This document shows, piece by piece, positions 1,717 to 62,345 of a DNA stretch of 64,000 nucleotides. Under the pieces are notes generated by a model. That model was not told the DNA's origin. It did not search any database and worked only from the letters and a program-made list of their open reading frames with translations. The DNA comes from Blasia pusilla (Eukaryota). The translations under genes were made by a program, and so were the position numbers. The stretch covers positions 14,818,001 through 14,882,000 of the forward strand of contig CM114271.1 of NCBI GenBank assembly GCA_050084515.1, read 5' to 3'. Every line of letters starts with the position of its first letter. Position 1 is the first letter of the stretch.

Positions 1717-4536
1717 CGACGGATGTGCGGGGATTACCGACCTATCAATCGACAGGCGAAGTCGGATCGATATGCCATGCCTACTCGTGAGGAGATCTTT
1801 GATACATTAAGGCATGCAAAGATTTTCAGTACTTTAGATCTTCGTGCTGGCTATCATCAGCTTCCTATCAGGTTTGAGGATAGAGAGAAGACAACATTCT
1901 GGGGGATAGATCCATTCGGGAGAGATTGCTTGTATCAATGGCGGTTCTTACCATTTGGGTTGAAGAACGTATCTGCGGAGTTTCAAAGAGTGATAGATAG
2001 GATTTTGGTTGGCTTGGATTTTGTATGGTGTTACATAGATGATATTCTTATCTTCAGTTCCACGGTTGATGAGCATGAGCGACACATGGAGGAGGTGTTT
2101 CACAGATTGCAGTTACATGGACTAAAGTTACATCCATGCAAGTGCATATTCTTTCAGTAGGAGATTAAGTACTTGGGACACACCATTTATCCGACTAGAT
2201 TAGGTGTTCAACAGACAAAGGTGGAGGCTATTGGGAAAATTCCATGCCCTACAGATGTGAGTCAAGTCCGAGCATTTCTGGGACTGGCAAACTTCTATCG
2301 ACGATATGTCAAGGGTTTCAATGCGATCGTGAAGTCTTTGACCTTGCTGACGAGACTTGATCAAGTTTGGTTGTGGGGAGATGATGAGGAGCGAGAATTT
2401 CAGGAGCTCAAGGACAAGTTGACATCCTCACCCATTTTATAGAGACCGATTATGGGTCACCCATTCCAGTTGCATACGGATTGGAGCATGTTGGGTGTAG
2501 GAGCAGTGCTTACTTAGAGGGATGTCGAGGAGAGGGAGTTCGTTGTGGCTTACGCAAGCTGATCAAACAACATTGCAGAGGCAAAGTACAACTCCTACGA
2601 GGGAGAGTGCTTGGTTGTAGTGGGGGCCCTGGCACATTTCAGGTGCTATCTATTTGGAAACCCTTTCACACTTATCACTGATTATCATCCGTTGAGGTGG
2701 TTGATGGAGTCCGAAAAGCTTACGGAAAAGCTTGCCAAGTGGGCTCTATTGCTACATGAGTATGAGTTCGAGATGGTTCAGAGGCCAGGTTGGCTCAACC
2801 AGGAAGCGGATGGGTTGAGTCGTAACCCATGTCCGAGTCAGAGAGATGAAACATGAGCTCGATGGCACCGAGAGAGTGATGAGGAGATGGTGTCCGGTTG
2901 GCATGCATGTGCCTATCTTTGTTGGTTGACTATGGCAGGTCAACCGTAGGCGGTGACTCTAGTGGTGAGGTTGGATGATGAGTCTTTGGATCCGGAGGTC
3001 AGTGAGGAGATAACAGGTGGTTGTGATATCCATGACGACGTGGAGGTTGTGGAGCTCTTGCGTATTGGCGTCATAGCGAGCACAGTGAGTGCTAGGGAGC
3101 AGGATCGGATCCTACATAGAGCCAGGAGGTTCAGGTGGGAGGGGACTCACATTTTGCAGGTATGGGGAGATGGTAGGATACGGATGGTACCTCATCCTTC
3201 CCAGCGAGCACGTGTAGTGTGACATGCCCATGAGGAGTTTGGGCATTTTGGAGTAAAGCGTACTTACAGCTTACTTCAAGTTTAGTATAGGTGGCGCGGC
3301 ATGCATACTGGGATACAGCGGTTTGTGGCCAGATATATGGTATGTGACCAAGTGCGAGCATCCTTCAATGCTCCCACTCCGCATTTACATCCTTTTCCGA
3401 TTATGGGTTTAGGTTATCGGTGGAGTTTAGACTTAGGGGAACCTTTGGCATTGACGGGGCGTCATCATAGGTACGTGTTGGTCATGGTGGAGCATTTCTC
3501 CAAGTGGATAGAGTTGGTGGCACTACTCGACTAGGCGAGCGAGGGAATAGCTTATGCATTTCTAGATCGTGTGCTTAGTCACTTTTGTGCACCGGCGGAG
3601 GTGTTGACTGACCAGGGTACCGAGTTCAGGGGAGATTTCACCCCTTGTATGATCATGTGTTGATAGATCACCGCACCATGTCCAAAGATCATCCTGAAGC
3701 AGATGGGTTGGCGGAGAGAGTAGTACAGACGGTGAAGAGAGGATTGCGCAAGTATGGCTTGCAGCGGAGACAGTTGAGGGAGTGGGACCTACACTTGTCA
3801 TGGTTGGCTATGGGTTATCGCTTTAGTTGGCATGCATCCTTGGCGTCATTTTCACCGTACTTTTTGCTCTTTGGGAGAGAGCGAGATTTACCTACAGCTA
3901 TTTGACATGACATGGCAGAGGTGTTAGATCTTGATGATCCAGATGTGTGGATACAAGCGTGTTCTCAGAGGGCGGAGATTTTTTGTAGAGTTATGCCCAT
4001 GGCTTTTGAGAACTTACCTATTGCTCAGCATAGGGATACATTAAGGTAAGCGACCATTTGTGGAGGAGGTTATCATCAAGGGATTAGGAGGTTTCATCCT
4101 AGAGATTACGTGTGTTTACAGCATGCGGCACCCACGATGCTAGATGTCACTGCAAGGCACACGATCCTACGTGTACGCGAGGTATTACCGACCAGAGTCC
4201 TTATGTTGGAGGGACGGGATGGTATCATTTGGAAGGATCATGCGCGCAATTGTGCACTATGTCACCTTTCGAACGTGGACGGGATGGGATGGTATCGTTT
4301 GGAAGGATCATGTGCGCAACTGTACGCTATATCACCTTCCGAACGTGGACGGGATAGTGGATCCGAGCTTGGCAGTGGTACCTGCAGGCTTGAGGTGTAT
4401 GTTGTGCAGATCTGCGAGGGGTGCAGCCACCATGTTAGTATGTGATGGTTGTTCTCGAGGGTGGCATATGCCATGTGTGACCTCCCACCTTGATGTAGTT
4501 CCCACGGGACGATGGATATGTCTGAGATGTGTATAG
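1717..4536 (+). pseudogene. Degenerate Ty3/gypsy pol: RT-RNaseH-integrase with a C-terminal PHD finger
   Basis: RT motifs RMCGDYRPIN, FSTLDLRAGYHQ, LPFGLKN, YIDDILIFS. RNaseH motifs LHTDWS, FTLITDYHPLRWL. Integrase GHFG..RT, C..C remnant, VEHFSKW, TDQGTEF, HPEADGLAERVVQT. PHD CMLC...MLVCDGCSRGWHMPC...WICLRC. Several stops and frameshifts. Confidence 0.93.
4216..4355 (+). repeat. 70-bp tandem duplication inside the integrase C-terminal region
   Basis: GGTATC(A/G)TTTGGAAGGATCATG...GAACGTGGACGGGAT occurs at 4221 and again at 4291. It shifts the reading frame. Confidence 0.9.
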
Positions 4537-4601
4537 GGTAGTAGGTCATGTTAAGGAGATCTGATATTTTGGGGGATCCAACTGCCAGCTAGGGGGGCGG
4601 T

Positions 4602-5352
4602 TGTGTGAACTCCATGTATATGCATGAGTTGATTTATGTACATGTGTGGATCTATTCGTGTGTGGGGAAGATCGGTGTCGTGTGATATGGATGTGACCAG
4701 CGATGTATGTTGTGTAGCGATTTGTATGCGCACGACAGCTATCACATCTGAGTAGCCGATAGGCCGAGATCTATCGTGGATAGGGCATAGGAGCCAGCGG
4801 ACTGTCTTGAGTGCAACTTTGTCCCGAGGTGTTGGATGAGATTGAGGATAGGTCCGTTGTGTTAGGAACGTCGTTTCTGAAAACTTTCTTGTTGAGGTCT
4901 TTCACAGTCGAGTGACTTGTTGAGCAGGTCATCCGCCCTTGATAACCTGTGCGCATAGGTTACCAGAAGGATAGCTATTTTTAGGGGAAGAGCCTTTTGG
5001 CTCTTCCCAACCCTATATACGGCAGGAAGATGGCTTTCCCAAGCCATCTTTCTCATGTTGGGCCGTTGGAGCACCTCTCTTGTTTTGTGTGAGATAGGAC
5101 CAAGGTGCTAATGTCTGGATTTCCTGAGAGCACAATGTGGACGAGGCTCGATATGCCGATGTAGATTGAGGAGTGGAGTTTTAGGCCGGGTGTGCCATTT
5201 TTGCTACTCTTTTTTTTTTGTGATCTCCATGTATATGTATGAGTTGATTTCTATACATGTGTGGATCTACCTGTGTGTGGGGAAGATTGATGTTGTGTGG
5301 TGTGGATATGACCAGCGATGTATGTTGTGTAGCAATTTGTATACACACGACA
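4602..5352 (+). mobile_element. 3' terminal repeat region of the PHD-gypsy element, arranged B(4602-4737)-A(4740-5218)-B(5219-5352)
   Basis: PPT-like AGGGGGGCGG at 4591-4600 directly precedes block B. B (~135 bp, ending ...CACGACA) is repeated at 5219-5352. A starts TATCACATCT, matching TGTCAC(A/G)TCT at 7171 and 33580. Confidence 0.8.
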
Positions 5353-6082
5353 CGGCACTGGTTGTGGCGGCGGCGGCGGCAAACACCGACGGCGATATGG
5401 ACGGCGATGGAGACGGAGACGGTGACGGCACTGACAATGATGGTGATGGTGCGGACGGTGATTGGGAAGGCGCCGTCGATGGTGGCGATTGGTTTAGGGT
5501 TTGACGATTTTTAACCTAAAAATTGTCTAGTTATGGTAGTTTGCAAAATTTGCCATACCTTTCTACTCACAGCTCCAAATTGCACACCGTTTGTTCCACA
5601 GCGTGCACAGCTTCCCGATCTACAACAAAGTCAATTTGTTTTCCATTGGAAATTCCAAAAAAATGCAGATGAGGATTGTGGTAAAGCCCTTCAATCTGCT
5701 CTCCTACACAAATTTTGGCAGCACTTCCGCATTGATTTCTCCCGACGAAAATTGAAAACTTGTTACAAAAAAAATCAAAGAGCTACATGGTGCTCCCAAG
5801 AGCACCGGCATGGAGCAACCTGCCCCCATACTCAATCTCTAATGAAAATTGGGCAGCGCTTCCGCACGCCACTCTCTTGTACGAAAAATGAGCAATGAAA
5901 AACAGCAAAATGAGCGGCTCTTGCTTCCGTGAGCACTCCCATGAGCCATTGAACAAGGAACACGGTCCCCAACTTGCACCAATAGCCAGTGACTAGCAAG
6001 CTTCTCCATTTAAGCTCTCTCACTCCATCATTCTCTCTTTGTAAATCAATCAAATCTCTCACAACAACAAGCTCTCCATGGT

Positions 6083-6226
<144 letters not shown>

Positions 6227-6244
6227 CACATATGATGGCATAAG

Positions 6245-6281
<37 letters not shown>

Positions 6282-6428
6282 GCCTCTCTCTCCACGTTGA
6301 TCATCAGGCACTCAGGTTGGTACACTTTGCTCCTTGGCTAGATAGGGTTACACCTATGGAGTGCATCACGAAACTTGGAGCTACGTCATTTGGATATGAA
6401 TTAGAACATGATATTTGCTTGATTTACT

Positions 6429-7170: not shown

Positions 7171-7823
7171 TGTAGTAAAGTGTCACGTCTTTTAGGATAG
7201 ATCGGTGAGATCTAGTAGAGAGCCTCCGCGAGTAGTGGAGGACAGGCTTAGGAGGTCGAGGATGACCTGCTGAGGCCCCGGGAAACTTGAGAGACTAGGT
7301 TTCCCCTTCATTTCGGCTCATTTAGAGCCATATTGAGGAACTTACTATTTTAGATAATTACTATTTTGAGTATATGGTCGACTTTCTATTTTTGTTAAGT
7401 AGCCCTTGACCTCCTACATCAGGTCAAGAGCCAAGGAGATGACTTAGGAGCATAGGTTACCATGGAGAGAGCTTGGGAGAGGAAAGGGGTATACCTCAAG
7501 GAGATAGAGCTTGAGAGCTCATTCTCTCTTTGTTGAACCTCTTGGCACGAGGCAGCGGAGCTATGGTCCCTTGCCTTGTGAGTGTAACCCAAGCCTCTCA
7601 TTAGGAGAGTGGGTTTGGTTTGACATTGAGAGAGATATATGAGAGTGCACAGATGTGAGAATTATGATGTTGTGAGAGAGATTGGATTTTATTTTATTGG
7701 AGATATTTTGGTACTTCTTGTCTCGTTGTTTGGATGCCATGAGTTAGCATGGGATCGTGCGTGTTTGTGTGTGTGTTCGATGACAGTGATGTATGTTGTG
7801 TAGCGATGTGTATGCGTACGACA
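7171..7823 (+). mobile_element. Solo terminal repeat (A+B) of the PHD-gypsy family with 4-bp TSD
   Basis: Starts TGTC and ends GACA (inverted termini), flanked by AAAG on both sides. 7698-7823 is nearly identical to the reverse complement of 56877-57002. 7171-7630 aligns with 33580-33995. Confidence 0.85.
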
Positions 7824-26361: not shown

Positions 26362-28150
26362 TTTCCAAGGCCATCAGCATCATCTATTATGGATAGACAC
26401 AGTGCCTCTGATGGAATCTCCGGATTATCAATCGATAACCTCCTCCCCAAATGGTTGCATACCTCATTGTGTTCCTATATTATGCAATTGCTAAATTCAC
26501 TGAAATACCATGGGCATGACTCTTTGAAATATATCCATCCTCATAGAAGATGCTAGCATCTACTCATCGCGGTCATTGAGCTTCATTGTCTCACTAGCAT
26601 TATAAAAAATGAACATAGCTAAATTTGGCTCTTGCTGACAAAACAAAAAAGGATCCCATAGATGCTTGCAAGCTAAACCCATATCCCATCGGTAACCATG
26701 GTTGATGTCGATATTGATCTCCTAGATGACCTCCCTATAGACCATAGTTGTGAAATCCCCTTTTCACCATCTTGAGAACACACTCGACTAGACCATCTAT
26801 CTTAGGATGATATTATGATATCATATGGTGGTCGATAAACGCTTTATCACGGAAGATTTGAAACTCCCCGTAAAGCTTGAGGCTATGGTAAATCAACATT
26901 TTTGCTAGTGTCATATACTGAATCATGCTATTTGTGTGTCTTATATTCTATCGATTACCATTGAGACACCTAAATGGTAAGCTTGCTCACCATTTGCATC
27001 TATTATTGCCTTAGTGAGGGGGTTAGAGGGAGATGGGAAGGTACTATAAATGTACTATTCTTGTGGCATATGGTTGAAGTTGCATTAGGCTTTAGATTCA
27101 TTCCGCTTGCGTAACTTTAGGCTCGAGGAGAGAAGCTTGGAGAGTCCATGATGTACAATGAGTGCAAATTTTAGTAAAGCAATATGATATTGTTTAACCG
27201 TGGAGGCAACCTTTAGATAAGAAGTGATCCACGTATATCATATATGATTTATTTGAGCTATTGCCCAATTCTCCTCCAACAACTAAATACTTTGATGAAA
27301 AATTTATATATTTCTCCCTCACTTGCCATTTGGGGGAATGCAACAAACTCTATCCACTTCAAGAAGTTCTCGACCATCACCAAAATATATCAATTATGGC
27401 ATTTTGTCTATGAGTAAGGCCTTGAAATTTAAATCCAAAGTCCAATGGTAGCCTAAACTCATTATTGGAAGTGGATGCAACTGTACATGTGAAGTTGGAG
27501 CATTGAATGATATAATAAGAAAGCCAATGTGTCAAGCTTCCCTATAAGTTTGTTGGATCCCATCAACTGTGTCAACGGTTGATCATCAAGGAGTTACCAA
27601 AAAAGAAACATCTAAAATGAATGATGATCCACACTATAGTGAAACACTCTCCCTTATTCAAGTTTTATTTCACCTCATCAACATTTTTTAGCGGCTAGCC
27701 TAAGCCACAACAAATTCTCTATCCTCATCGTCATGTTGAGTAAGAACTGTTCCAAATCTCATTAGACTCCTATGCGTATCTATTTGGAAATTATCCCTTG
27801 TAATTGGTCTGTGCAAGATAAACTTGGCCTCCGATAATTCCTTCAAATTTATAAATACTCTCTCTTATTCATCTCCCCACTACCACTTTTGATCCAATTT
27901 TGTAAATAAGGTTAGAAGTTTTGCAATCGCAATGAATCTCTTGACGTACTATCAACATAAGTTTTCCAATTCCATGAATGCACAAACTTGACTCACATCC
28001 ATAAGGCATGTAATGCATGAGATAGACCCTACCTTATTTTTATGAACACCGATTCGACTTGGGTATATCGTATGACCCCAGTTATCAATATGGTCACTGA
28101 AGAACTTACACTTGTGTGGATATAGCTTCACCTCATGTGACTGCAATGTA
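26362..28150 (-). pseudogene. Highly degenerate Ty3/gypsy pol remnant (RT end, RNaseH, integrase), related to the PHD family
   Basis: VKLYPHKCKFF...GHTIYP...DVSQVCAFM at 27960-28140. Integrase-like MSLGYHWTLD and VENFLKWIEF at ~27340-27470. 26385-26460 resembles 4050-4120. Confidence 0.75.
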
Positions 28151-29499: not shown

Positions 29500-32400
29500 C
29501 CTTTGGTCCTCTCCAAAGCGTTACGTAGATACACTATGATCTGCTACAAAAGACTTGATATGTGAACATGTTGTTTGAAGAGTATAGTAAGTTGAAAAAA
29601 ATGTTTGTCACATCTTAGTTAGCCGACATGACAAGATATAACATATTTATGGCATAGAGAGTTAATGAGTTGTTCGAGCATACATTTTTTTGGGAGTTTT
29701 CAATTGAAGTTAGCGCACGACAACTTTGTTGCATCGATATTTTTTTTAGGACTTTCCTCCTTGTTTGCTATTTTGGGCCATGTGATAGATTGATCAAGTC
29801 AATGATCACTTGATAAATTATGTGCATAAGTTAGTGGTTTAGGGCTATGGAGGGGATCCACATGAGAACGTGTATAGGGATGAGAGCAAGCGTTGCTCTG
29901 TTAGACAAAAAAAATGCACATTCGTGGCAAGGCTGGATGGAGTAGTGCCTTAGGCAAGAGATGAAGGTAGTTAGGCCATGACATTAGTTTTAAAGAGTAA
30001 CCATATTAGGAGGTATGTGGGTTGTGGTATCAAGTCGACGGACACGGATAGACAGGGATGAACAAGAGGCACGTAAGAGTCGAGGGTGAACACACGTAGC
30101 CCAGATGGATGCTAGACAAGCAGAGAGTATAGAAGCCAAGGATTTTTACCACGGATGAAGGTAGTAATGATGAGCCTTGCCAAGCTAGGTCCACATAGGT
30201 CCTCCTTGATGGAGTTGAAAGAGGATGTGCTTAACGGGCCCTACGGGCCCGCATTTAGGATTCCATACGTGAGAGCAAATACAAATCTTGGAGCCAAGTT
30301 GGCACCATAGGGAGATGTGTGGATGGAGGACTTCACAAAGATAAAATTGTATAAATAGCCAGCAGGTGCACGTGAGACAAATGGAGTTGAGAGTTGGCAA
30401 AAAGGGATGGTAAAGAGACATTGTCAAAAGAATTGGAAAGGAGCCATGTTGGCTTGGGTGGAGCAGTTGGCCACATAAGAGTCCGATGGAGATAGAAAGA
30501 GTGGAGAACTTAGGTAGACATGCCCTTATGTGCATAGGGAAAGTTGAAAGGGTGTTGGGGATAAGAAGGAACCGATGTGAATGCACTGAGTGAGTTGGAA
30601 GTGGGGTCGTTGGTAGGATAGCCACATAATGCGATCTAACATTGCACCATCGTTAGTTGGGTTGAATGAGGTAACAGTATAATGCAATAGGCCAAGTTAT
30701 AGAGTTAGAGTGAGTAGCTACGTAGTAGGCTGGATTGAGGTGGTAGCAAGAGGTCTCTTGGAGAGATTGGCATTGATTTTTGCAAATTGGTGTTTCTGAT
30801 AGTACATCATGATTTGTGGCAAGAGATTTGCCACCCACTAAGAGTTGTTGAAGGAGTTACAATTGGCTAGCACCATGCCGATTGTGGTCAAGATGGGCAA
30901 TACGCACAGAAGGTCCATGACAAGGTCATTGGCAGAGGTGGTGACACATACGTCGATGCCAACAAGTAGTGTGCATTTTTTTATGAGAGGTTCGACTTGC
31001 TATTCAAGGAGATTTTCACAACACATGGAGCACATATAGTTCCCAGAATAGTAGAGTGATGGTGCGCGTGTTGAGGTTATCCATCCGAGCCCTATTCCCG
31101 CACTTGTCTCTTTCATTGAGGGTGTTAGGTATAGGGTAGCGCTTGTGCTAGATGGGTGTAGTTATGGTATCATAGAGTGATGGGAGCAAAGGAAGTCCAC
31201 CATAGGTACATGGTTTTGGATTGAGAGTTGCGGATGAGAAATTAGGATGTGATGTTGCTTCATACAACCATCTTGAACCAAGTCCACATTCAAAGTGATC
31301 TTCAAGTTGTGTGAGCAAATTGAGCTTAACATGGATGAAGAGCATGTTGTAACCATGAGAATCCCATGAGAGTCAATGGGTCTAAGAGTGTAAGTTGTCC
31401 CATAAGTGTCCTAATGTGCATGAATACCACGAGAGTGGGTTGGTGTGCCTAAAGAGTAGAATGACATCATGAGCCCACAAGGCAACCACCTGTACATACA
31501 TACATTGGTTAGCAGGGATCAATTTTGGTTTGTTGGCAGAGGGATTACAGATAGAGTTCAAAGAGTGCCTTATATGCCTTAGGAGCCACCTCACATGACA
31601 CCATCATAGTCATAGTAAGAGAATTGTCACCAATATGGTCATACAAGGGATAGGTTTTTCAAGTGTTGCCTAAAGGTATGTCTAGAGGTAGGCAGAGGGT
31701 CTTGGGGCATGAGAGTTGGTGGAGGTTGAGGAATAGATGACCGTAGTGGTAGAGTTCCACTACTTGTATGAGGTAATGGAGGACGTGCACTTGATGCAAT
31801 CCTCCTCACTCACATTGATCAATTGGAGCACATGATTGTTGCAATGACAATGACACAATGAAGGATGGACACAAACCCAAGGGCATCCAATTTAGCTTCA
31901 TCCTAGCCTCGACATTATATTGGGATACAAGGAAGGACTTATTTGGTATGGGATTCATGTGTGGTGTGGCTTAGGTAGATACTCATGCTTGAGTGACTCG
32001 AGGTGCTATGAAAGGGACAAAGCCATCAAAGGGTGGGGTTGAGATACATCCACATGAGGGGATCGATGGGTGACCAACCACTGTTCCCTATTCATTCACG
32101 TTATCACAAGTACTATAAATACCATCGATGGTATTAAAACAACCAACAGTTCCCTCATGTGGGATGGATACGTTGACATCAACAGGAGTTAAAGATGAAA
32201 CTCCTATTTTGGATTAGGTGGAGCCAATCAAGAACTTTGATGGGAATGGCCATACCAATGTGTTACGCTCCATTGTTTTTGCAATGGTCAAACTTAGCGA
32301 TAGTAGGAGTTGGACCAACATAAGTATTTTGGGTGGCTTCTATGTTGTGTGAGCATGGAGAGGTTATTGCTTATTGTAAGGAGATAGTAGATAAGGAAGT

Positions 32401-33210
32401 GGTGAATCTGCCCTCATAATAAGTGCTAAGGACGTTCCCCATTGATTTGGGGTAGGTTGGCATATATTCTAGTTAGACCCGCAATAGAGCGAGCCATGGT
32501 GATACTAGATATGATGTTTTTAGACAACCAAAGCAAGGTGTTTTGCATGGTAAGTCATACACATACAATATACCTCTTGCAGTGCGTCCTACTTGATGAA
32601 GGAACATAACCCTTAATGTTAGGAAAGGTGGTGTGTTAAGCGTTTGGATTATGGAAAGGCAATATGGAGCCATGTTCCTTCCAGATACAAATCTCCATTG
32701 GGAGTGTGTCATCCACAAAGTTCAAAACTTGACAAGAATTTGTTTTTTTATTCCATCCAAAGAATCCTTAGATAGTGCAATGGTGTGCACTCATACCATT
32801 TTGACCCCATCATAGTCATACAATGTGTTGGTAGAGAGTATAGTATTATTTCGCTTGGTTTCTTCCTTGATATTTGGGAGGAGATGGCTTATGATCGAAA
32901 AAGATGGTAATCATGTTATGGTTGGATGAGCCATCTACCAGTGTGGTTTGCAAGACGTGATGGTTATGGTGGTGGTCCATGAGATGACATAGTGACCACC
33001 TTGGAAAATTTCACGATAGTGTTAGTTGACTAGGAGAGTTTTTGGAGGGAAGCACCTATATGGAGAATATCTCGATAATCGATAGTCCCACACAGAGATG
33101 TGCCATATTGGATGTCTTTTTCTCTGGAATGGGGAGCTCTTCAATATTATGGGGTACGAACATGGACGTGTAGATTGAGGAGTGAGGCCAACTCGATCGT
33201 GTGCCTTTAT
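29500..33210 (+). mobile_element. Probable very old LTR-retrotransposon remnant
   Basis: Only weak integrase-like text (LTRICFFIPSKES). 33165-33205 resembles 5155-5196 of block A. No clear domains otherwise. Confidence 0.3.
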
Positions 33211-33579
33211 TTTTTAGCAGACTAAATTAGATGATGGTCATGCTCTTGAATTAAAGAATTTATGCTCTTGACACAACACCTCTTATGTGGGAGTTTTTGG
33301 AAGAGGGTGTAAGAGTTCTTAATCTCTTGAAAGGCATCAACATTAAGTTAGTTGGGATGTTATAGGTTGACATACAGGTTCATTAGTACCTCTATATTGA
33401 GAGAGATGAGATCGCACGACCTATCTTATTATGCCATGTGGATGAGACAATTTATTCAAGCTTGGCATTGATTCCCGCAAGCTTAAGATGTATATTATAT
33501 GGATATGTAAGGGGTGCAATAACCATGTTAGTATGTGATGGTTGTTTTAGAGGGTGACACATATTGAGTCTAAGCCCTA

Positions 33580-34430
<851 letters not shown>

Positions 34431-34456: not shown

Positions 34457-35530
34457 AAAGGCTCCACATCACCTACGACGCTTTTGGGTCTAGACCCCCT
34501 AACTTATAAGTGAAAAATAAATTTTTTTCACCCTTATGTACTTTAAAGGAATCATTTTTCAGTTTTGGTACCCCTAAAATTCTTTAAGTAAAGAAATCAC
34601 TTGAAATAAATAAGGCCTTGAAAGAAAAGAAAAGTACCAAGTTAAGTTAACATCCAATTTGTTGTCCTTACACTATGGTAGAGGGAGGTTCAACCCCTAA
34701 TTGAGGAAGAAGCTCAATCATCCAATCTATCATCCCCCTAGCCTACTCCCTCCCACTAACCTACTCACAATTCAACACTGTCAAGTACACTCTAAGCACA
34801 ATCCACAAAATTATTGAATCCAACATCTCTCAAACATAAAAAAACCTCTCTAAGAACAACTCACATTCTGAATGTATGTAGTCAAAGCATGTAAGTCAAC
34901 AGAATCAAGTATATATATTTTATCTTGTACCCCTAATTTCATTGTCAAGTTCACATTAGAAATCACCATTTCAATATCAATCCATTGCATATCTATTGCA
35001 TCAAAAGTGAATAAGGAAGGTTTTTTTTGTTACCATGGCCGAAAGACTTGTACCAATTACACATGACACGACAAATGCTTCCCTTCTATCTAGGAGGAGG
35101 TACATGCATGTCCATCAAGGCCAAGGCCCTATGATGTCTTGACCAATGTTTACCATTCTTTTGAATCATAAACACAATACGCCCCAACCAATACTCCTTT
35201 TTTGCAACTCTTGCCTCCAGTGCAAGTTGTGTCTCTTTTCCCTTCATTTTCTTTGACTTTGTTGATCTTGTGGAAGGGCCAACGTCTGACCTAGATACAA
35301 ACAAAATTGTGATATCACTACCAACATCAACCAAACAAGTTGGGCAATTAGGATCATACTCATTTTTCTTGCCAGTAGTGTAAAATGTCTTTTGGGCTAT
35401 TCGAGTTAGCCTGTCCTTTGACATGAAAGGATTACAAAACAATTGATTTACAAAGGTGGATTTATATATAATCTTGCCCTCATAAGTTATAATAGGCACT
35501 ATTGTATGGGGAATCGCCAAAATAGTCAGT
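34457..35530 (-). mobile_element. Inverted copy of the 3' ~1.07 kb of the P-like transposase element
   Basis: The reverse complement aligns with ~43110-44181. ORF 35086-35520 (AIPHTIVPIITYEGKIIYK...KKEYWLGRIVFMIQKNG) matches ORFs 42923-43505. Confidence 0.93.
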
Positions 35531-35894
35531 TTTTCTTGACAACCATGCTCATAGAGAGTTGCAAATTTTCAAGTGTTTATGGAGAGCTCAAAGATTAGAA
35601 TATGATTGGCAAAAAGCAGAAAATTTTGATTCGGTGATCACACTATACACAACTCTCCACAAGAGACAACATTGGTTTAAGCTTTCAACCACATATTTCG
35701 TGTTGGAAAATTACGAGCGCAACTAAATATTACAGTTAAGTGCTCGTCCAAGATTGGCGCATGGTGGCATTATGAAAGGCAGGTGCATTGTGGCTTTGTG
35801 GAGAAGTAGAGGATAGCAACGGAGAGATGGCAAGGAGAGGAAGATTTTTGTTGGGCGCATTAGGTTGCAAATATCTCTCTTTTATGACCAAATC

Positions 35895-41800: not shown

Positions 41801-43787
41801 CTGTATCCATTCTTCCAAATGGAGACTTGTATGGCTTTGGAGACCAAGATCCACTCCACAATGGCAAAAAAGCCATTAACCCATTGGACATATGTGCTGC
41901 CATGCTAGTGCTTAGTGACTAGCATGCGTCGTTTTCCTACATGACATTTTTTTATAGCCATTATAAAATCGAGGAGCATGGCTTGAAGTGGAATAATTTG
42001 AATAGGACTGACAGGAAGAATTGGGTTGGTCCATAACGGATAGCATCCAGAAGAGTGCAAACTTGCTTCCAACACATGTTTGAGCAACAAGATGTTCGGC
42101 ATGATAGAAGCTTTGGGACTAAGTTGTACCTTGAGATTTCTATAGATCACATTGAAATTTTCTTCTCTGCTACGCATGACTTGTGAACTCGTATAGTATT
42201 GGCATCTAAGGTATCTTGGTTTTTCCGTTTTTGGAGGTTGTGGTTGAGGTGCGGTGACCATTCTATGATAGGGAATACAAGATATGTCACATAAAAAAAA
42301 TATGATCTCTATTCAGGATTTCCATGATATCAACATGTCTTGCCATTTCATTATACTCTTAGTTTGTGCAATCCAAGACAAGTTTCCATATCTTCAAGTT
42401 CCATTTCACTTGCTAGGATCTGATTGCTGTGAGATTTTCTTCAGCAAGGTAGGTGGCATGAGTGGTCATGAAAGGAACTAAGACTTTGGATCTCTACTAG
42501 ATAATGCAGTAGGAGTGAATCAAAAGGCTAGCCTAGAGTATGGACCGGAAGGATAAAAGATACGTCGTTCACATCATAAGCAAGATCACGTTTGGGAAAA
42601 ATTGCATCCTCTTGGTGATGGAGACGAGGCTCCAAATCTATTTGATTATTCATTGGTTGGGACTAATGAGTTGGTTGTTGATGCTCTTAAAGAAGGGTTG
42701 GATGCAGCAAAAGATCTTTTGTAGTTGTTGAATATGTCTCCAAGGAGTTCCTTGCCAATTGCAAAAAGAAGGTGGTGGGTGCATCCCTGGGATGTGGAGG
42801 TCGAGACATGGATTGATTTAGCTTCAATAAGGGAAGTAGTGTCATGTGATGATGTGAAAGAACATGAAGATCACCAATCCACAATAGGGTCTCCAATATA
42901 TGAGTAGCAAACTGGGGATTTTTTGGATTTTGAGGACCCATTGGAAGATTTGAATCAGATTGATTATTGGGTTGTAGAGGAAAGTTGTGATATCACTGTT
43001 CCTTTCATAATAGATAAAAAAGAGATACATGTCGACATTGACCCAAAATCCATTGAGATGGAGATATTAGGACATGAAGTAAGGCTTGCGTTTGCATTTG
43101 TTCAAGCCGAAGTGACTAATGTGGCAATTCCCCATGCAATAGTGTCGATTGTAACTTATGAGGGCAAGATTATCTATAAATATGCCCTTGTAAGTTAAAT
43201 GTCTCGCAATCCTTTCATGTCAAAGGATAGGCTTACTCGAATAGCCCAAAAGACATATAACACTACTGGCGAGGGAAAGAAGCGGGATCCTAATTGTCCA
43301 ACTTGTTTGGTTGATATTGGTACTGACATTGCAATTTTGTTTGAATCCATATATTTGCAGTGACGTTGGCCCTTCCACAAGATCAAAAAAGTCAAGGAAA
43401 ATTAAGGGAAAAGAGACACAACTTGCAATGGAGGCAGGAGTTGCAAAAAAGGAGTATTGGTTGGGGCGTATTGTGTTTATGATTCAAAAGAATGGTTCGC
43501 ATTAGTCAAGACGTCATAGGGTGTTGGACTTGTTGGACAGGCGTGTACCTCCTCCTGGACAAAAGGGAAGCATTTTTCGTATTATGTGTAATTGGTACAA
43601 GTCTTCGGACCATGGTCACAACAAAACCTTATTCACTTATGATGCAACAGATGTGCAATGGATTGATATTAAAATGGTGATTTCTAATGTAAAATTGACA
43701 ATGAAATCGGGGGTACAAGATAGAATATATATACTTGATTCAGTTGACATACATGCTTTAACTACATACATTCAGAATGTGAATTGA
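38900..43787 (+). pseudogene. Degenerate multi-PHD + C2H2 + P-element-like DDE transposase gene
   Basis: PHD cassette CAICDFHGDLVICDGPCH*KFH / WYFPECTSGT*KCFKCG / CPLYTCVAC...QCLRCPKAWHLGCL...IYFPDH. C2H2-like CLECQ..FSNFK..H and NLRQHLVSHDH. Catalytic-like motifs FAEDET (41305), HASDGD (41701), DQDPLHNGKK (41842), GSDCCEIFFS (42419). Many stops and frameshifts. Probable intron at ~41334-41425. Confidence 0.75.
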
Positions 43788-44183
43788 TCTTGGTGAGTTT
43801 TTTTTATGTTTGAGACATGTTGGAGTAAATATTTTGTGGATTGTGCTTAGAGTGTACTTGACACTCTAGAATTGTGAGTAGGATAGTGGGAGGGAGTACG
43901 CTAGGGGGATGACAGATTGGATGATTGAGCTTCTTGCTCAATTAGGGGTTCAATTCCCCTATGTCATAATGTAAGGACAAAATGTTGGATGTTAACTTAA
44001 CTTTGTACTTTTCTTTTCTTTCAAGGCCTTATTTATTTCAAGTGATTGCTTTACTTGAAGAATTTTAGTGATAAAAAAAATGAAAATGATTACTTGAAAG
44101 TAAATAAAGGTAAGAAGAAAAAAGTAACTTATAAGTTAGGGAATCTAGACCCTAAAACGTCGCAGGTGATGTAGAGCCTTTTG

Positions 44184-45520
44184 GAGAATTTTTGAATGTA
44201 GGTTTTGCTAGATATTTGAGTGCTAGAGTCCAAATTCCCTCGTGGAAGTGGATCGATGTGGCTCAATATGCCGATGTCGATCCAAGAGGGATTTGGCCAG
44301 GTGTGTTTTTTACTTTGATTTTATTGTATGGTATTTGTATATATACATGAATCTATTTTATATGTTTACGGATCTATCCATATGTTAGAAAGATCGATGA
44401 TGTTTGGTGTGTAGATGTGATCAACAATGTGGATGGTAGAGCGATGAGTATGCGTACGATAACTTTCATGAATAGTTTGTAATCGCAAGCAACCTCACCT
44501 AAAGGACAATATAGAACTAGAAAGGAGAAGATAAGTAAAGAAATTTATTGATCAAGATATATGAAGAAAGATGTTTCATTGAGAATTTTTGTGTATTGTA
44601 TTATCAAGTTTCTACTTGAAACAAATTTTAATGAGCATAATTTGTATTTATATGTTTTCTGAAGCGTGACATAGGTTTGGTTTGTGAGTCTCATAAGGTG
44701 ATGGTATGTGATATATGAATCAAATAAGTCATATATCCTGGTTATAAAACAAAGAATTTGTTCTAGTGTAACCAACATGCAAAAGCTATCATTTTGGGCT
44801 ATTTTTTTGGGAAGATATTTGTTCATTCTTCCCAAGGATTTAAATGGTGACGAGATGGTCTTACTAACCATCTTTCTCATGTTGAGCCTTTGGAACACTC
44901 ATCTTTTGGGATTTGAGAGTAGCTTTAGAATTAGAGTTTGGATTTTCTCATCATGGAGGATGGATATGGCTTGATAAATATATATAGATCTAGGGTGGGA
45001 TTCGATGTGTGAGCCATTTTTACTTTGATGCTGCTATATGGTCTTGGTATATACATGTGAGTATATTTTTTGATGTGTATAAATCTATGTGTGTATTGGG
45101 GAGATCAAAGGTATTTGTTGTGTGGATATGAATAGCGAGAGTAATGTGTAGGGATGTGTATAAGAACAATATCTCTCTAGATAGGGGCCCTTTGGGGCCG
45201 ACTCGTTTGGAGCCTAAATGATTCATAAAGGAGGGGCCGAGGGAGTAAACTTGAGCCTCTTATAAGGAGAGGCTTGAGTTTTCTTAGAAGGAGAGAGCAT
45301 GTTTTCCATCACGCATATTATTGAGGTTCATCTTCCTCTTTCTATAAGGAAGGAGGTTTGGTTTGATACATGAGAGAAAGTACTTGCGCACGAATTTATT
45401 AGAGATCATTTGATATATGATTCTATGGATGTGTGTATATGTGTATATGTGTGTGGTTTCTAAGTTGTTTAGCTTGTTGGATGGTGACAAAGATGTGTGG
45501 GCACAACCCATACCTTTTCA
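44184..45520 (+). mobile_element. Fragments of PHD-gypsy terminal repeats (partial A+B, several copies)
   Basis: 44215-44460 and 44780-45165 resemble parts of 4960-5352, e.g. GGCTCAATATGCCGATGT and CCATCTTTCTCATGTTG.GCC.TTGGA.CAC. 45340-45375 resembles 7600-7635. Confidence 0.65.
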
Positions 45521-56876: not shown

Positions 56877-59418
56877 TGTCGTGCGCATACACATCGCTAC
56901 ACAACATACATCGCTGTCACCGAACACACACACAAACACGCACGATCCCATGCTAACTCATGGCATCCAAACAACGAGACAAGAAGTACCAAAATATCTC
57001 CAATCGCCCCCCTAGTTGGTGGTTAGGTCCCTCTAACTCAAGATGGCCATCTATCCCTACCTACCATGACATACATCTCTCGGACGCTAAGAGCAAGAAG
57101 GTCGGGTGCTCATGTGGCCCCATCGTTAGTCGCCTTCCTCTCACCCATGTCAGAGAAAAAGTCGGGATCGAAACCTACCTAGTATCTCCTCTATGTACAT
57201 CTGGGACACATCCATCGTCCCCGAGGAATCCTAGTGAGAGGTGGCGTCAGACATGCCATATGCCAACCTCTCCAACAACCATCACAGACAAGCATCGTGG
57301 CCGCACCACGGGCAGAACCATACAACATACAACGCAAGCTTGCAAGAACTACTGCTAAGCTTGGATCCAATGTACCATCAATGTTAGGAAGGTGACACGG
57401 AGCACAATTTTGCACATGATCCTTCCATACCATACCATCGCGTCCCTCAAGCAAGAGAACACCGGATGGCAAAACGTCACGCACTCTCCAGATAGTGCGC
57501 CTTGCAGTCACATCCAACGTCGTCGATGCCGTCTGCTGCAAGTAGACATAAAATCCCTGATGAAACCTTCAGTTAGTTGATCGATAACCACCACCCCAAA
57601 TAGTCGCATACCTCAACGTATCCCGATGCTGGGAAATCGCCAAGTTCTCAAATGCTATGGGCATCACTCTCCGAAACAACTCAGCCCTCTGAGAACATGT
57701 TCACATCCATACATCTGGGTTATCAAGGTCCAGCACCTCACTAGCATCTCGACAAATGGCCGTAGGTAAATCTGGCTCTCGGCCATAAAGTAGCAAGTAC
57801 GGTGAAAAAGACGCTAAGGATGCCTGCCTACGGATTCTATATCCCATCGCCAACCAGGGCAACTAGAGGTCCCAATCTCCTAGGTGACCTCTTTGCAAGC
57901 CATACTTGCGTAAACACCTCTTCACCGTGTGCACAACTCTCTCCGCTAATCCATCCGCCTCAAGATGATCTCACGAAGTCGTACAATGGTTGATGAGCGC
58001 CTGATCACACAAGGATGTGGCACTACGCGTACTCTGCCATCCTCCCAAACCCTCAAAACATGTGTCCCCTCCCAACGGAACCGTCTGGCCCGGTGTAGGA
58101 TCCGATCCCGCTCTCTAGCATCCACGGTGCTCGCAACGCTGCCAGTACGAAGGTATTCCAAGACAACTTCATCATCATGAATATCTCGGCCACTTGTCGT
58201 ATCCTCACTGGCCTCGGGATCCAAGGACTCTCTGCTAGACCTCGCCATCGAAGTCTCCACACTCTGGCTCTCCATAGCCAACATGCCTAAATAGGCTGAC
58301 GCGTGCCATCCTGGCACCGACTCCTCATCACTCTCTCCATGCCATTGAGCTCCAATCGCATCTCTCTAACTCAGGCATGGGTTACGACTGAACCCATCTG
58401 CATCCTGGTTGAGCGTCCTAGGTCTATGAACCACGTGAAAATCATACTCTTGCAACAACAGAGCCCATCTCGCAAGCTTCCCGGTAAGCTTGTCGGACTC
58501 CATCAACCACTACAGTGGTTGATGATCAGTGATGATGGTAAAGGGGTTGCTAAATAAGTAACACCTGAAATGCGCGACCACACATGACCAAGCACTCACC
58601 CTCATACGAGATGTACTTCGCGCCTCTGCAAAGATTGTTTGAGTGGCTAGCGAAGCCACCACGAACTCTCTACCCTCATCATCATGCTAGGTGAGCACCG
58701 CCCAAGCCCCAACATGCTCCAATCTCTCAGGTAACCGAAAGGACTCCTCGATCGGTCTCCTCAAGATGGGCGCGACGCCAACTCGCCCTGAGCAAATCGA
58801 AATGCTCGCTCCTGCTCATCCCCCCAGTGCCACTCGTGATCCACATTGGTAAGCAAGGTCAGCGGCTTCGCAATCGAACTGAATCCCTTGACAGATCGCC
58901 GATAGAAGTTTCCAATCCCATGAATGCGCGAACACGGCTCACATTTGTAGGGCGTGGAATGCGTGAGATAGCCTCTACCTTTGTCTGCTGAACACCAAGG
59001 CCCCCCGGGTATAACGTATGACCCAAGTACTCAATCTGGTCGCACAAGAACTTGCACTTGCCTGGATGTAGCTTCATCCCATGTAATTGCAATCGTCGAA
59101 ACACCACCTCTAGATGTCGCTCATGCTCCTCAACCGTGGCGCTAAAGACTACGATATCATCAATATAACACCTAGCAAAATACAGACCAGCCAAGATCCT
59201 ATCCATGACCCTCTGAAACTCAGTCGGGGCGTTCTTTACCCCAAATGGTGAGAGCCGCCACTGGTACAAACAATCCTTCCCGTGAGGATTGATGCCCCAA
59301 AATGCCGTCTTCTGCATGTCCTCCAATCTGATAGGCAGCTTCTGGTATCCGGCTCGCAAATCCAATGAACTGAAGACCTTTGCGTGACCAATCACATCAA
59401 AGATCTCCTCAAGGGTGG
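56877..59418 (-). mobile_element. Second PHD-gypsy copy, 3' part: RT-RNaseH-INT (internally deleted)-PHD, PPT, block B
   Basis: FSSLDLRAGYQ, YIDDIVVF, LVCDGCWRGWHMAC...WMCPRC. PPT at 57006-57014, followed by 126-bp block B (57002-56877) ending GCGCACGACA. Integrase deletion near 58010. Confidence 0.92.
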
Positions 59419-61699
59419 TTTCGCGACCCTCATAACCAAACAACACCAAATACGCGCCAAGCGAAACATCAGAACTCAAAGGAACTCACGCCGCGAGGTT
59501 TGCGCTTTGGAGAGGCGTTTGGAAGAGTCTCTTGAAAAAGTCTAAGAGACGAAACGTGGAACAGAGTTGTGCATTTCATGTGTTAGTGGTCGCGACCAGG
59601 AAACCTAGACCAAACGTGAGCCGAGACTTGAGATGAGTTGAGTCTCGGAGGTTGGTTGCCAAGGAGGTGAGAACCAGTTTGGAACACGGCTAGCGTTTGG
59701 GAGAATCTGACTGTGTTTAGGACCATAACGTTGAGCTCCGAGATGCGTTCGGGACAAGTAAGGGCGCGTTGGAAAGCTGATCTTGAGACGCTTCCAACGC
59801 ACCAAAGATCTCAGCAAACGCATAAGTACAGGCTGAGATATTGGCCGAAAACGATTCAGAGAGCAATCGGGTTGAGGGCCAATTGGAGGGGCCCGGGTGT
59901 CTTTCCCTAAATGTAGGGGGCCCCCGGAAATCCCCAGAAGTACTAGTAAGGGGAGTACCTTCTCTGAGATGTCTCGGGAAACGAAACCCCACTTTGGGCG
60001 CCAAACGGCGTTTGAGGCACGGATGAAACGGAGTTTGGCGGGGAAAACCCAAACCCAAACCTGATCCAAGGGAGTGGACTTTTACGCCACCCTTGATTCC
60101 AACCGAGATTCACTTCGTGCGAGTCTTGGTGAGGAACTCATTGGATGTTCATCGGACAGTTGGAACCGCTAGCGTTAAACGCCGTTTCAGTTCCCGAACC
60201 GACAGAAAAGTCTGGTCCCAAGTCTTTCGAGACTTGCCCGTGTTGGAAACCGCGAAACTAGGAAGGTTGAGCTTGAAGAGAGAGTCCGAGACGAGAACTC
60301 GGAAAGTAATCCCGCTGATTGATCCAAGACCCGACTAACCGGTGCGTGTTTGGATGCAGATCAGCGTTGAGAGCGTGACTCATCAACGCATGCTTCCGCA
60401 ACAAACAAGATTAACGTTCAAGGAGAGTAGGCGCACGACACGTGGTATCGAGCAATTCCTTGATGAGCGTGAACTTGGGGTCGTTGAAGATCTGGGCGTT
60501 TGGGGAGAACTCAAGGTAGCCGGAAGACCGCGACGCCGAGGAGGAACGCAAGAGGCGCAGGAGGAGATCTGAGAAAATGCGACGACTCGCAAATGGCGAC
60601 CAAGGACGAAGAACCGAGGAAACCGCGAGTCAAAGCAAAGAAGCCAAGAGATTTAATCAATGACGGATACCGAGAGCCGGAGGTGGAATTTGCGACTCCC
60701 GGTGCCGAGTCCGGACATGAGGATGTTCCAACCGAAAATCTTTCCGCGGGACCTTCGGGTCCAAACTTAAACGATCCGGCCTTTTATACCCAAATGATGG
60801 GATTGATGAAGGTGATGGCGGACCAGATGGTGAACAGAGCAAGGTGATCTCGAATTCAAGTCAAATGGAGCCTCTAGCTCGGCAAGAAGCTTTGTAAGAC
60901 TAATTTGCCAACGCCATTCACAGAATGGGGCGTTCTCGGAAAGTGAGCGAAGTTTCTAACGGAACTCGAACTCTATTTCAGCGCAAAGGCAGATGAACAA
61001 GACAAGATGATCAGAGCGGTCACGTTTCAAGGATCACGCTCTCCATTGGTGGACGGCTCACCGCAAAGAACATCTAGGTCGTGGGAAAACGTTGAGTTGG
61101 GAAGATTTCAAGGAGTTGATTGGGAACCGATTCACCGGAATATCGGAGTACCGCGATGGCATGGAGGTGGTGAGGTTGCGCCAGAGTGGATCACTTGGTG
61201 CTTATGTGCGAGAGTTTAGTGCACTTATGAGTGCACTTTCCACGGATGAACATATAAAACGGTGATCTTCCTAAGTGGGCTCAAACCGAGTGCCGAGAAG
61301 GCTCTCTTTCGTATGCCTCACATCCCAGAGACGTGCGCGGACCTCTTGAGACTAGCCGAGCGGATTGGGGACGATGAAGTCCAACACCCGAAACCCTTTG
61401 AGACAAAAAGTTTTTCTAAGTTACAGAAGAATAAAGGGACATCCAAGAGGGTTTGGAATGGGGGTGAGCGCGACCACGGAGGGTCTCTCGCCCCAGCGGC
61501 GAAACGAGTGGAACTCAACGCAAAGCCGAAGGGGCCGAAGTCCGAGACGAGAACTCGGAAAGTAATCCCGCTGATTGATCCAAGACCCGACTAACCGAAG
61601 TGCGTGTTTGGATGCAGATCAGCGTTGAGAGCGTGACCTACTGAACGCACGCTTCCGCAACAAACAAGATTAACGTTCAAGGAGAGTAGGCGCACGACA
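59419..61699 (+). mobile_element. Nested Ty3/gypsy deletion derivative (LTR-PBS-gag-truncated LTR) inserted in the RT of the PHD-gypsy
   Basis: 5-bp TSD GGTGG (59414-59418 and 61700-61704). Removing the insert restores YAMPTLEEIFD. 5' LTR 59419-60440, PBS TGGTATCGAGC at 60443, gag-like FLTELELYF/DKMIRAVTF. 60283-60440 is repeated at 61539-61699. Confidence 0.9.
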
Positions 61700-62345
61700 G
61701 GTGGGCATGGCATACCTATTGGACTTCGTCTACCGATTGATAGGTTGGTAATCCCCACACATCCGCCTATCCATCCAATTGCCATGCACATCCTTCTTGG
61801 CGGGCATGACGGTGGCAGATGCATACTCCCCATGCGACATCTCCACTAGTCTTGATCCGACCAAGTCTTGGCTCCTACTCTGAATCAGAGCCCTCTCCAT
61901 ATCACTGTACCTGTAGGGTCGTCGGAAGATCGGCGTATCACTCGACAACTCAATGCGGATCCCCAGTCCTTTCAGCGTACCCAAATCCTCCATGCTAAAC
62001 GCAAAGCAGCTTCTATAACTCTTGAGGAACAGATGTATTCGGCGCCGCTCTCCTCCTGTTAACTTAGGGCCCATATCTCGCTCCCAAGTCTCCATCGTGA
62101 CTACGGTAGGACTCTCCGACGCGGGTATTGGTGGTTGCTATGGTGCAACCCTATCTCAAACAACAACACTCGGGCGCTCTCTGCAAGCCAATTGCAAACT
62201 CTTATCTCCTCCACGTGCAGTGCCTGAAACCACGCTCGATGATGTGGCTATCATCTCCTTGCGTACCTGCAAAACATCCCAAGAAGTGCAAGGGTGTCTC
62301 TCCTGATCTCCCCCCAAGATCTCTTGGGTCTCGTGACCACTACCT
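61700..62345 (-). pseudogene. Upstream pol part of the interrupted PHD-gypsy copy (RT N-terminus)
   Basis: PIFRRPYRYS...YASATVMPAKKD...RRMCGDYQPINR continues across the insertion into 59418. Confidence 0.9.

Follow-up and report, generated by a model that had tools for sequence, protein, structure and literature searches.

In the textbook account, LTR retrotransposons integrate linear cDNA through its two ends, and 2-LTR circles are dead ends. An earlier model, in which the 2-LTR circle was the integrating form (Panganiban and Temin 1984, as related in PMC11054761), was displaced by linear precursors, and foamy-virus integrase has been reported to cleave LTR–LTR palindromes (PMC1180852). For KnitGypsy-Dnmt3 of Klebsormidium nitens (de Mendoza et al. 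2018, PMC5890265), the legend to Fig. 4c describes the repeats as DIRS-like, in the order A-coding-B-A-B, in an element with Gypsy domains. That account is a legend of one sentence, with nothing in it on a PBS, an att palindrome, a TSD, a spectrum of joints or a mechanism. A PHD finger is present in Gypsy-7a_cRei, whose LTRs are described as near-identical (PMC9940879), and a search of the preprint 10.64898/2026.05.21.726589 gave nothing on termini.

The window analysed here is a stretch of 64,000 nucleotides of the Blasia pusilla genome (G000:C1:14818001-14882000); the genome searched comprised 390 Mb in 26 contigs. Its elements resemble KnitGypsy-Dnmt3, as far as the legend goes, in having a Gypsy pol with a C5 DNMT and A-coding-B-A-B repeats. 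With canonical Ty3/Gypsy elements, as summarised by Neumann et al. (2019, PMC6317226), they share the RT-RH-IN order, an HHCC/DDE integrase, TG..CA ends, a 4-bp TSD, a PBS and a PPT, but their integrated ends are not the reverse-transcription ends and are not two identical LTRs (A at one end, B-A-B at the other). A search for paired LTRs of the kind used in PMC6317226 would therefore be expected to miss the elements or to place their boundaries wrongly. Tf1, sushi and Tcn1 are likewise described as having a PBS complementary to the 5′ end of the transcript (PMC7175516, PMC6317226), which is the arrangement we predict here. Unlike them, the Blasia elements carry a PHD finger in place of the C-terminal chromodomain, a DNMT domain and permuted termini.

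The order of domains is C5 methyltransferase (DNMT; PF00145, above the cut-off), RT, RNase H, HHCC/DDE integrase and PHD finger. The integrase has HHCC and D-D-E motifs and Pfam matches to rve and H2C2, and its best PDB match is Ty3 Gag-Pol (E 1.4e-21). Two zinc-knuckle-like motifs and a protease-like LLDSGA motif were recognised by eye, the protease having no Pfam match in the family's frames. All copies examined are broken by stops and frameshifts, with a longest frame of 767 codons. Named proteins with the same domain set occur in Klebsormidium, Closterium, Pleodorina, Tetrabaena, Haematococcus and Chlamydomonas; a DNMT-bearing protein of K. nitens (P0030) has 47% identity over RH-IN. A quick integrase tree, unrooted and without an outgroup, left the deep forks open, including the placement relative to KnitGypsy-Dnmt3. 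Among 266 RNA reads from one raw run, sense reads lay over the PHD region, with no pile-up of starts or ends. The elements are Gypsy by their enzymes and not by their terminal structure, which lacks the paired LTRs of that group.

Two families are represented in the window, and the earlier note, which had treated all copies as one, has to be amended accordingly: 4600-5352 belongs to family 1, while 7181-7823, 56877-57004, the block at 33580 and 6030-6096 belong to family 2; alignment of its A and B with those of family 1 is confined to the regions near their ends. The family-1 copy starts at 1720, its 5′ part missing, and this truncated copy (1720-5352) sits within an opposite-strand copy of its sister family. 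A broken pol remnant on the plus strand (1720..4536; RT, RNase H, integrase and PHD, with Pfam matches to RVT_1 and PHD) has 88% identity to the full copy L031. Downstream on the same strand, the polypurine tract AGGGGGGCG (4591..4599), which is kept in family copies, adjoins block B1 (4600..4737; 3′ end GACA). A GC spacer (4738-4739) separates B1 from A2 (4740 to about 5215), which matches the 5′ A of full copies. A2 meets B2 in a T-run at 5210..5220, and B2 (about 5216-5352), again with the 3′ end GACA, forms the right end of the integrated element. B1 and B2 of this copy have 87.6% identity over 137 bp.

The family-2 copy around it is on the minus strand, with the end of A, the PBS (6042-6028) and the leader at 5459..6096 and the gag region carrying on at 1-1708. 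A solo A-B unit of the same family (7181..7823, plus strand; A 7181-7695, B 7696-7823) is flanked by the TSD AAAG/AAAG; it had been noticed before, TSD included, and only its start moves, from 7171 to 7181. The observation that a PPT is followed directly by B in three copies holds with corrected coordinates: 4591-4737, 57013-56877 on the minus strand, and 34282-34424, which is old and degenerate. The last of these is the B-only end, on the plus strand, of an older copy (31060-34424). At 33580..34165 (plus strand; PBS 34151-34160) a family-2-like A with its PBS lies as a fragment within the PHD region of that older copy; 33580, where the earlier note saw an apparent 5′ end, does not mark the 5′ end of the older copy. 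The minus-strand copy belongs to family 2 and spans 56877..62333, with its PPT at 57013-57005, a B-only end at 57004-56877 and an interruption at about 59419-61699. The sequence GATTTACAAAGAGAG, which the earlier note had seen following A, includes the PBS of family 2.

Several other features of the window were recorded. The insertion of about 2.3 kb that interrupts the last copy (59419-61699) has direct repeats of about 165 bp (60283-60445 and 61539-61704) and looks like another small LTR element. Older relatives of the same clade, 65-75% diverged, lie at 26394-28147 (minus strand) and 44220-45162 (plus strand) as a pol remnant and degenerate pieces of A and B. Long (GA)n expansions occur within family-2 A copies (6084-6292 and 33995-34103). 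Outside the retrotransposon family are a pair of inverted 1.1-kb repeats (34457-35539 and 43102-44181, 86% identity) and a frame for a host Dof zinc-finger transcription factor (PF02701; 9976-11718, minus strand).

Genome-wide, whole copies have the structure A–internal–B–GC–A–B and run from TGTC to GACA; this A..B-A-B architecture is real, abundant, conserved and family-wide. Exact patterns matched at least 852 A..PBS ends, at least 251 units in which the end of B, A and B follow one another across the att palindrome described below, and at least 479 A-B units, with no matches for reversed controls. When the window stretch served as query, all 30 loci returned had the order PPT-B-A-B, as expected from a query that itself has this order and is biased toward it. 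A less biased query, A plus PBS, returned 30 5′ ends, none of which had a same-strand family B after A or directly before it. The 30 3′ ends found with PPT plus B comprised 15 B-A-B, 5 with B and a partial or rearranged A, and 10 with B only. In seven clean B-only copies we looked for the 5′ end with 1.5-kb probes: one had a TSD (L085), one a mismatch (L086), one was interrupted, and in four the end was not found. Two others, L072 and L066, are A..B copies that have undergone deletion and are flanked by a TSD.

Whole copies were looked for from both directions. Reading 10 kb upstream of a B-A-B end at 20 loci gave a complete 5′ A in 9, ran off inside A in 4 and found none within reach in 7. 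Downstream of a 5′ end, a further set of 20 loci gave 13 complete B-A-B ends, one beyond reach, four truncated or interrupted, one A-B after a deletion (flanks unmatched) and one B-only end with a TSD. Among 22 complete family-1 copies, the 4-bp TSD was exact in 16, off by one base in 4 and failed in 2, against a mean of 0.8 matches (maximum 6) for permuted flank pairs.

These data bear on one alternative, namely that ordinary elements with AB LTRs were rearranged after insertion, by solo-LTR insertion or recombination, or that a tyrosine recombinase acted in trans. Solo AB units with TG..CA ends and a TSD do resemble normal solo LTRs: of 20 sampled A-B units without an intact upstream att, 14 were solo AB, 9 of these having an exact TSD, and the other 6 proved to be B-A-B whose att had mutated. 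Recombinants also exist, as the inter-family case L057, described below, illustrates. Against this stand the absence of B after or directly before A in all 30 5′ ends, the single TSD that encloses the entire A..BAB unit and a layout common to three families; as for a recombinase in trans, no recombinase domain was found in 42 frames of the whole copy L043. The census largely refutes rearrangement after insertion, and we regard this alternative as very improbable. The refuting possibility raised in the earlier note, CAGC/CGGC as the TSD of a one-off solo-LTR insertion at 4740-5352, is rejected: the layout recurs family-wide, and CAGC is simply the CA of B1 followed by the conserved GC spacer.

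Where reverse transcription begins and ends can be read from the PBS and the PPT. The PBS lies next to A: the bases directly 3′ of A1 are complementary to a site within A, downstream of a TATA-like box. A tRNA-type PBS was rejected, as the sequence after A has no initial TGG and matches A itself. In the window, the TATA-like box, a putative promoter, is at 5014..5019, about 26 nt 5′ of the 14-nt segment complementary to the PBS (5045..5058), which we take to be the transcript start and self-primer (both features on the plus strand). The complementarity extends over 14 nt at A306 in family 1, 16 nt at A338 in family 2 and 17 nt at A164 in family 3, compared with at most 10 nt among control positions inside the element, of which there were about 6,900 for each family, and 3-6 nt for cross-family pairs. 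It reaches at least 12 nt in 26/30 family-1 5′ ends, and since three differing PBS sequences each match their own A, the changes are compensatory. In the leader RNA fold the expected 14-bp pairing formed, although the overall z was only -1.5. An aberrant fossil joint in family 2, L320, resumes at A338, the predicted family-2 start.

Because the PBS adjoins the last base of A and the PPT the first base of B, the true LTR is B-GC-A. Standard reverse transcription, by the established pathway, would give linear DNA with B-GC-A at both ends. The unusual reverse-transcription route proposed in the earlier note is then unneeded: B-GC-A is an ordinary LTR as reverse transcription defines it, of which B1 is the first part and A2 the second. 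The unit B-GC-A-PBS was seen joining head-to-tail copies and, inverted, in captured pieces, and never as a simple 5′ terminus.

The likeness to PAT, TOC1 and Ngaro raised in the earlier note survives for layout, in that PAT, TOC and Ngaro elements share the A1-B1-A2-B2 split direct repeats (PMC4157794). It fails for recombination: no tyrosine recombinase domain was found by Pfam among the 42 L043 frames that have 80 codons or more, and these elements have instead a DDE integrase, a 4-bp TSD and priming from a PBS and a PPT. If reverse transcription nevertheless proceeded as in PAT or Ngaro (PMC4157794), starting at the RNA 3′ end in B2 and using B1-A2 as the template that rebuilds the ends, the A2/B2 joint would simply be inherited. 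Such a route has the same layout in its favor and would equally make A1 identical to A2 and B1 to B2. It leaves unexplained, though, the covarying self-priming PBS at A1 and the PPT at B1, and an inherited joint should be free of PPT or PBS remnants, yet these occur. We consider it improbable.

In the 22 copies with both pairs alignable, mean identity is 94.3% for A1/A2 and 95.9% for B1/B2, with no correlation between the two divergences (rho 0.26, p 0.23, n 22). Within one copy B1 and B2 share 50 minor alleles, compared with 17 by permutation (maximum 29 of 2000). Sharing about three times that of permuted pairs is expected if B2 is re-copied from B1 in each cycle; gene conversion could contribute.

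The termini of integrated copies, TGTC and GACA, correspond to the two halves of GACA-GC-TGTC. This palindrome is intact between B1 and A2 (4734..4743 on the plus strand in the window, where the copy has TATC) and common to families with otherwise unalignable A and B; its centre is GC or a transition variant, AC or GT. We infer that it is an internal attachment (att) site. The earlier note was right that the first copy ends in B-A-B, but the end-to-end circle junction it saw at GACA-GC is a fixed, inherited palindrome, and the variable joint is that between A2 and B2.

That joint appears to be a real end-to-end junction that behaves like joined DNA ends, presumably the two ends of the cDNA. 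Its commonest form, in 30/71 distinct copies, is exactly the end of A followed by the start of B as defined by PBS and PPT. The remaining joints include substitutions, homopolymer variants and deletions; length variants of T-runs and G-runs are weak evidence because the G-runs of the PPT vary too. Six further joints keep the PPT in part or in full, in some cases together with filler; one such filler is the reverse complement of the start of B. In L103, which has a TSD, the PPT and 20 foreign bases without a source in the element or the fetched flanks are retained. Seven joints (L111, L112, L116, L169, L318, L320 and L322) retain the PBS and 40-350 nt of leader, and L112, L116 and L322 among them meet B at its first base. 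One extra PBS-side A is present in 7/23 scored family-2 joints. In L114 and L115 an inverted piece of the form B-tail-att-A-PBS-leader, which is the predicted left end of the cDNA, is joined to B; the 3′ end of L115 was looked for and not found. Such aberrant joints are in the minority, and some of them could be deletions that arose later.

Taken together, these features make it likely that we are dealing with a Gypsy-type retrotransposon whose integrase att site lies inside the LTR and whose integrated copies represent circularly permuted forms of a 2-LTR molecule. The layout A1-PBS-internal-PPT-B1-GC-A2-B2, the TGTC/GACA ends, the 4-bp TSD and the DDE integrase are read directly from the sequence; cDNA, circles and cleavage are steps deduced from genomic fossil joints. 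The RNA would start in A1 about 26-30 nt past the TATA-like box, and its first 14-17 nt would pair with the PBS and prime the minus strand, as happens in Tf1. This strand would be transferred to A2; with priming by the PPT at B1 and a second transfer mediated by the PBS, an ordinary linear cDNA with B-GC-A at both ends would result. Integrase would then engage GACA^GCTGTC (GACAGCTGTC) of the left, PBS-side LTR, and a staggered cut after each CA would create two CA-3′OH ends with 2-nt 5′ overhangs, a known geometry of processed retroviral ends (PMC11054761). The free ends of the cDNA, that of A2 and the left start of B, would be ligated by end-joining, as in a 2-LTR circle. Whether this happens before insertion, by way of a 2-LTR circle, or as repair just after it is finely balanced, with a slight preference for before. 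The A..B-A-B product would keep the promoter, the R repeat and att, and could therefore be copied again.

The A..B and solo AB forms may be products of 1-LTR or double-cut intermediates, or recombination may have generated them later. As the earlier note envisaged, the element is Gypsy-type with a DDE integrase, its 5′ ends are A-only and its 3′ ends B-A-B, and solo AB and B-only forms accompany it. The A-A and B-B recombination that the note suggested for the solo AB and B-only copies is plausible, but the same forms would also be expected from other intermediates that integrate directly.

The same linear cDNA could also be resolved differently. Reverse transcriptase might itself make the A|B joint by a template jump from right to left, copying B into the left att, with integrase resolving the product. 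This would account, without a host ligase, for the precision of joints and for primer remnants, and a switch from A2 to A1 would produce the A-PBS-leader overshoots. The foreign 20-nt filler of L103, the fold-back filler and the captured inverted cDNA pieces look instead like host end-joining, and a template jump alone leaves the sparing of the right att unexplained. We judge it unlikely, though less so than a PAT/Ngaro-like route.

Sparing of the right att calls for an extra assumption under end-joining as well, because a free 2-LTR circle with identical palindromes should also give A-B-A..B. This mirror form was absent among the 1,361 A-PBS matches (852 of family 1 and 509 of family 2). An att upstream of A-PBS was present in 6/852 family-1 and 8/509 family-2 matches, and on inspection each of the 14 was a joint that had kept its PBS, a tandem unit, an internal junction of older date or an inverted capture. 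For the permuted-copy model to hold, the left palindrome must be strongly favored, and we would guess that it becomes stably double-stranded long before the right one.

Some unusual arrangements were met along the way. A 50,000-base contig has two successive family-2 PPT-B-att-A-PBS junctions 9,630 bp apart (G000:C25:10652-20806; L323, L324), and these head-to-tail 1-LTR units may form a tandem array or be an assembled circle; another dimer of similar type lies at C1:54.32-54.33 Mb. In one copy (L100 1750-2000 and L291 534-1233) the outer ends are the start of A and the end of B, with a near-TSD, and the middle is inverted, one breakpoint lying at most 7 nt from the start of B.

The same organization recurs beyond family 1. 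In family 2 the sequences of A and B differ from those of family 1, while PPT, att palindrome and layout are shared. Of 30 family-2 3′ ends, the majority run on into A and three are B-only, and the two whole copies analysed both have a TSD (CCCT and GATA). Among 80 metagenome loci with 54-80% protein identity, several have PPT-B-att-A-B; most loci did not extend to both ends or were inspected only in outline. L221 and L263 are whole A..B-A-B copies, with TSDs AAGG and AATC, and a third family with the same layout and palindrome is represented on metagenome contigs. At L057 (G000:C1, about 63.732 Mb) the tail of a family-1 B2 turns into family 2 and is followed by a family-2 att-A-B, with unmatched flanks; it is probably an inter-family recombinant. 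At L069 (about 950-1105), a family-1 A is broken by a B-like end similar to that of the metagenome family, which suggests that the Blasia genome also has a third family; A variants that start differently were found as well.

In our search of the openly accessible literature, the layout was found only in PMC5890265, with no match in the supplementary files, and the same search gave no published account of an internal att or of permuted integration for such elements. As far as searched, the layout has been noted once, and there is no earlier description of the internal palindromic att, of the self-priming or of an A/B joint made by end-joining. The circle model and foamy virus, as described in PMC11054761 and PMC1180852, have in common with the present case an integrase acting on a palindromic junction of two att half-sites. 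In those systems it is the joining of the cDNA ends that creates the palindrome; here the LTR itself encodes it, and no att is carried by the ends that become joined.

A further step would be to regard these elements as a green-lineage clade of DDE-integrase retrotransposons in which the 2-LTR circle is an obligatory integration precursor, with an att that has moved into the LTR as a ready-made palindrome and host end-joining in every productive cycle. We offer this only tentatively, at somewhat less than an even chance; if true, it would be a natural realization of the model abandoned for retroviruses. More generally, the ends used by integrase would be uncoupled from those made by reverse transcription in families with at least 852 and at least 509 pattern-matched 5′ ends in one genome, and the old question of whether an internal palindromic att can be the normal substrate of integrase becomes testable in a plant or algal system. 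The findings also suggest a route by which split direct repeats may evolve without a tyrosine recombinase. Finally, they imply that annotation based on paired LTRs overlooks an abundant clade, relatives of which, as judged from their proteins, occur in Klebsormidium, Closterium and volvocine algae.
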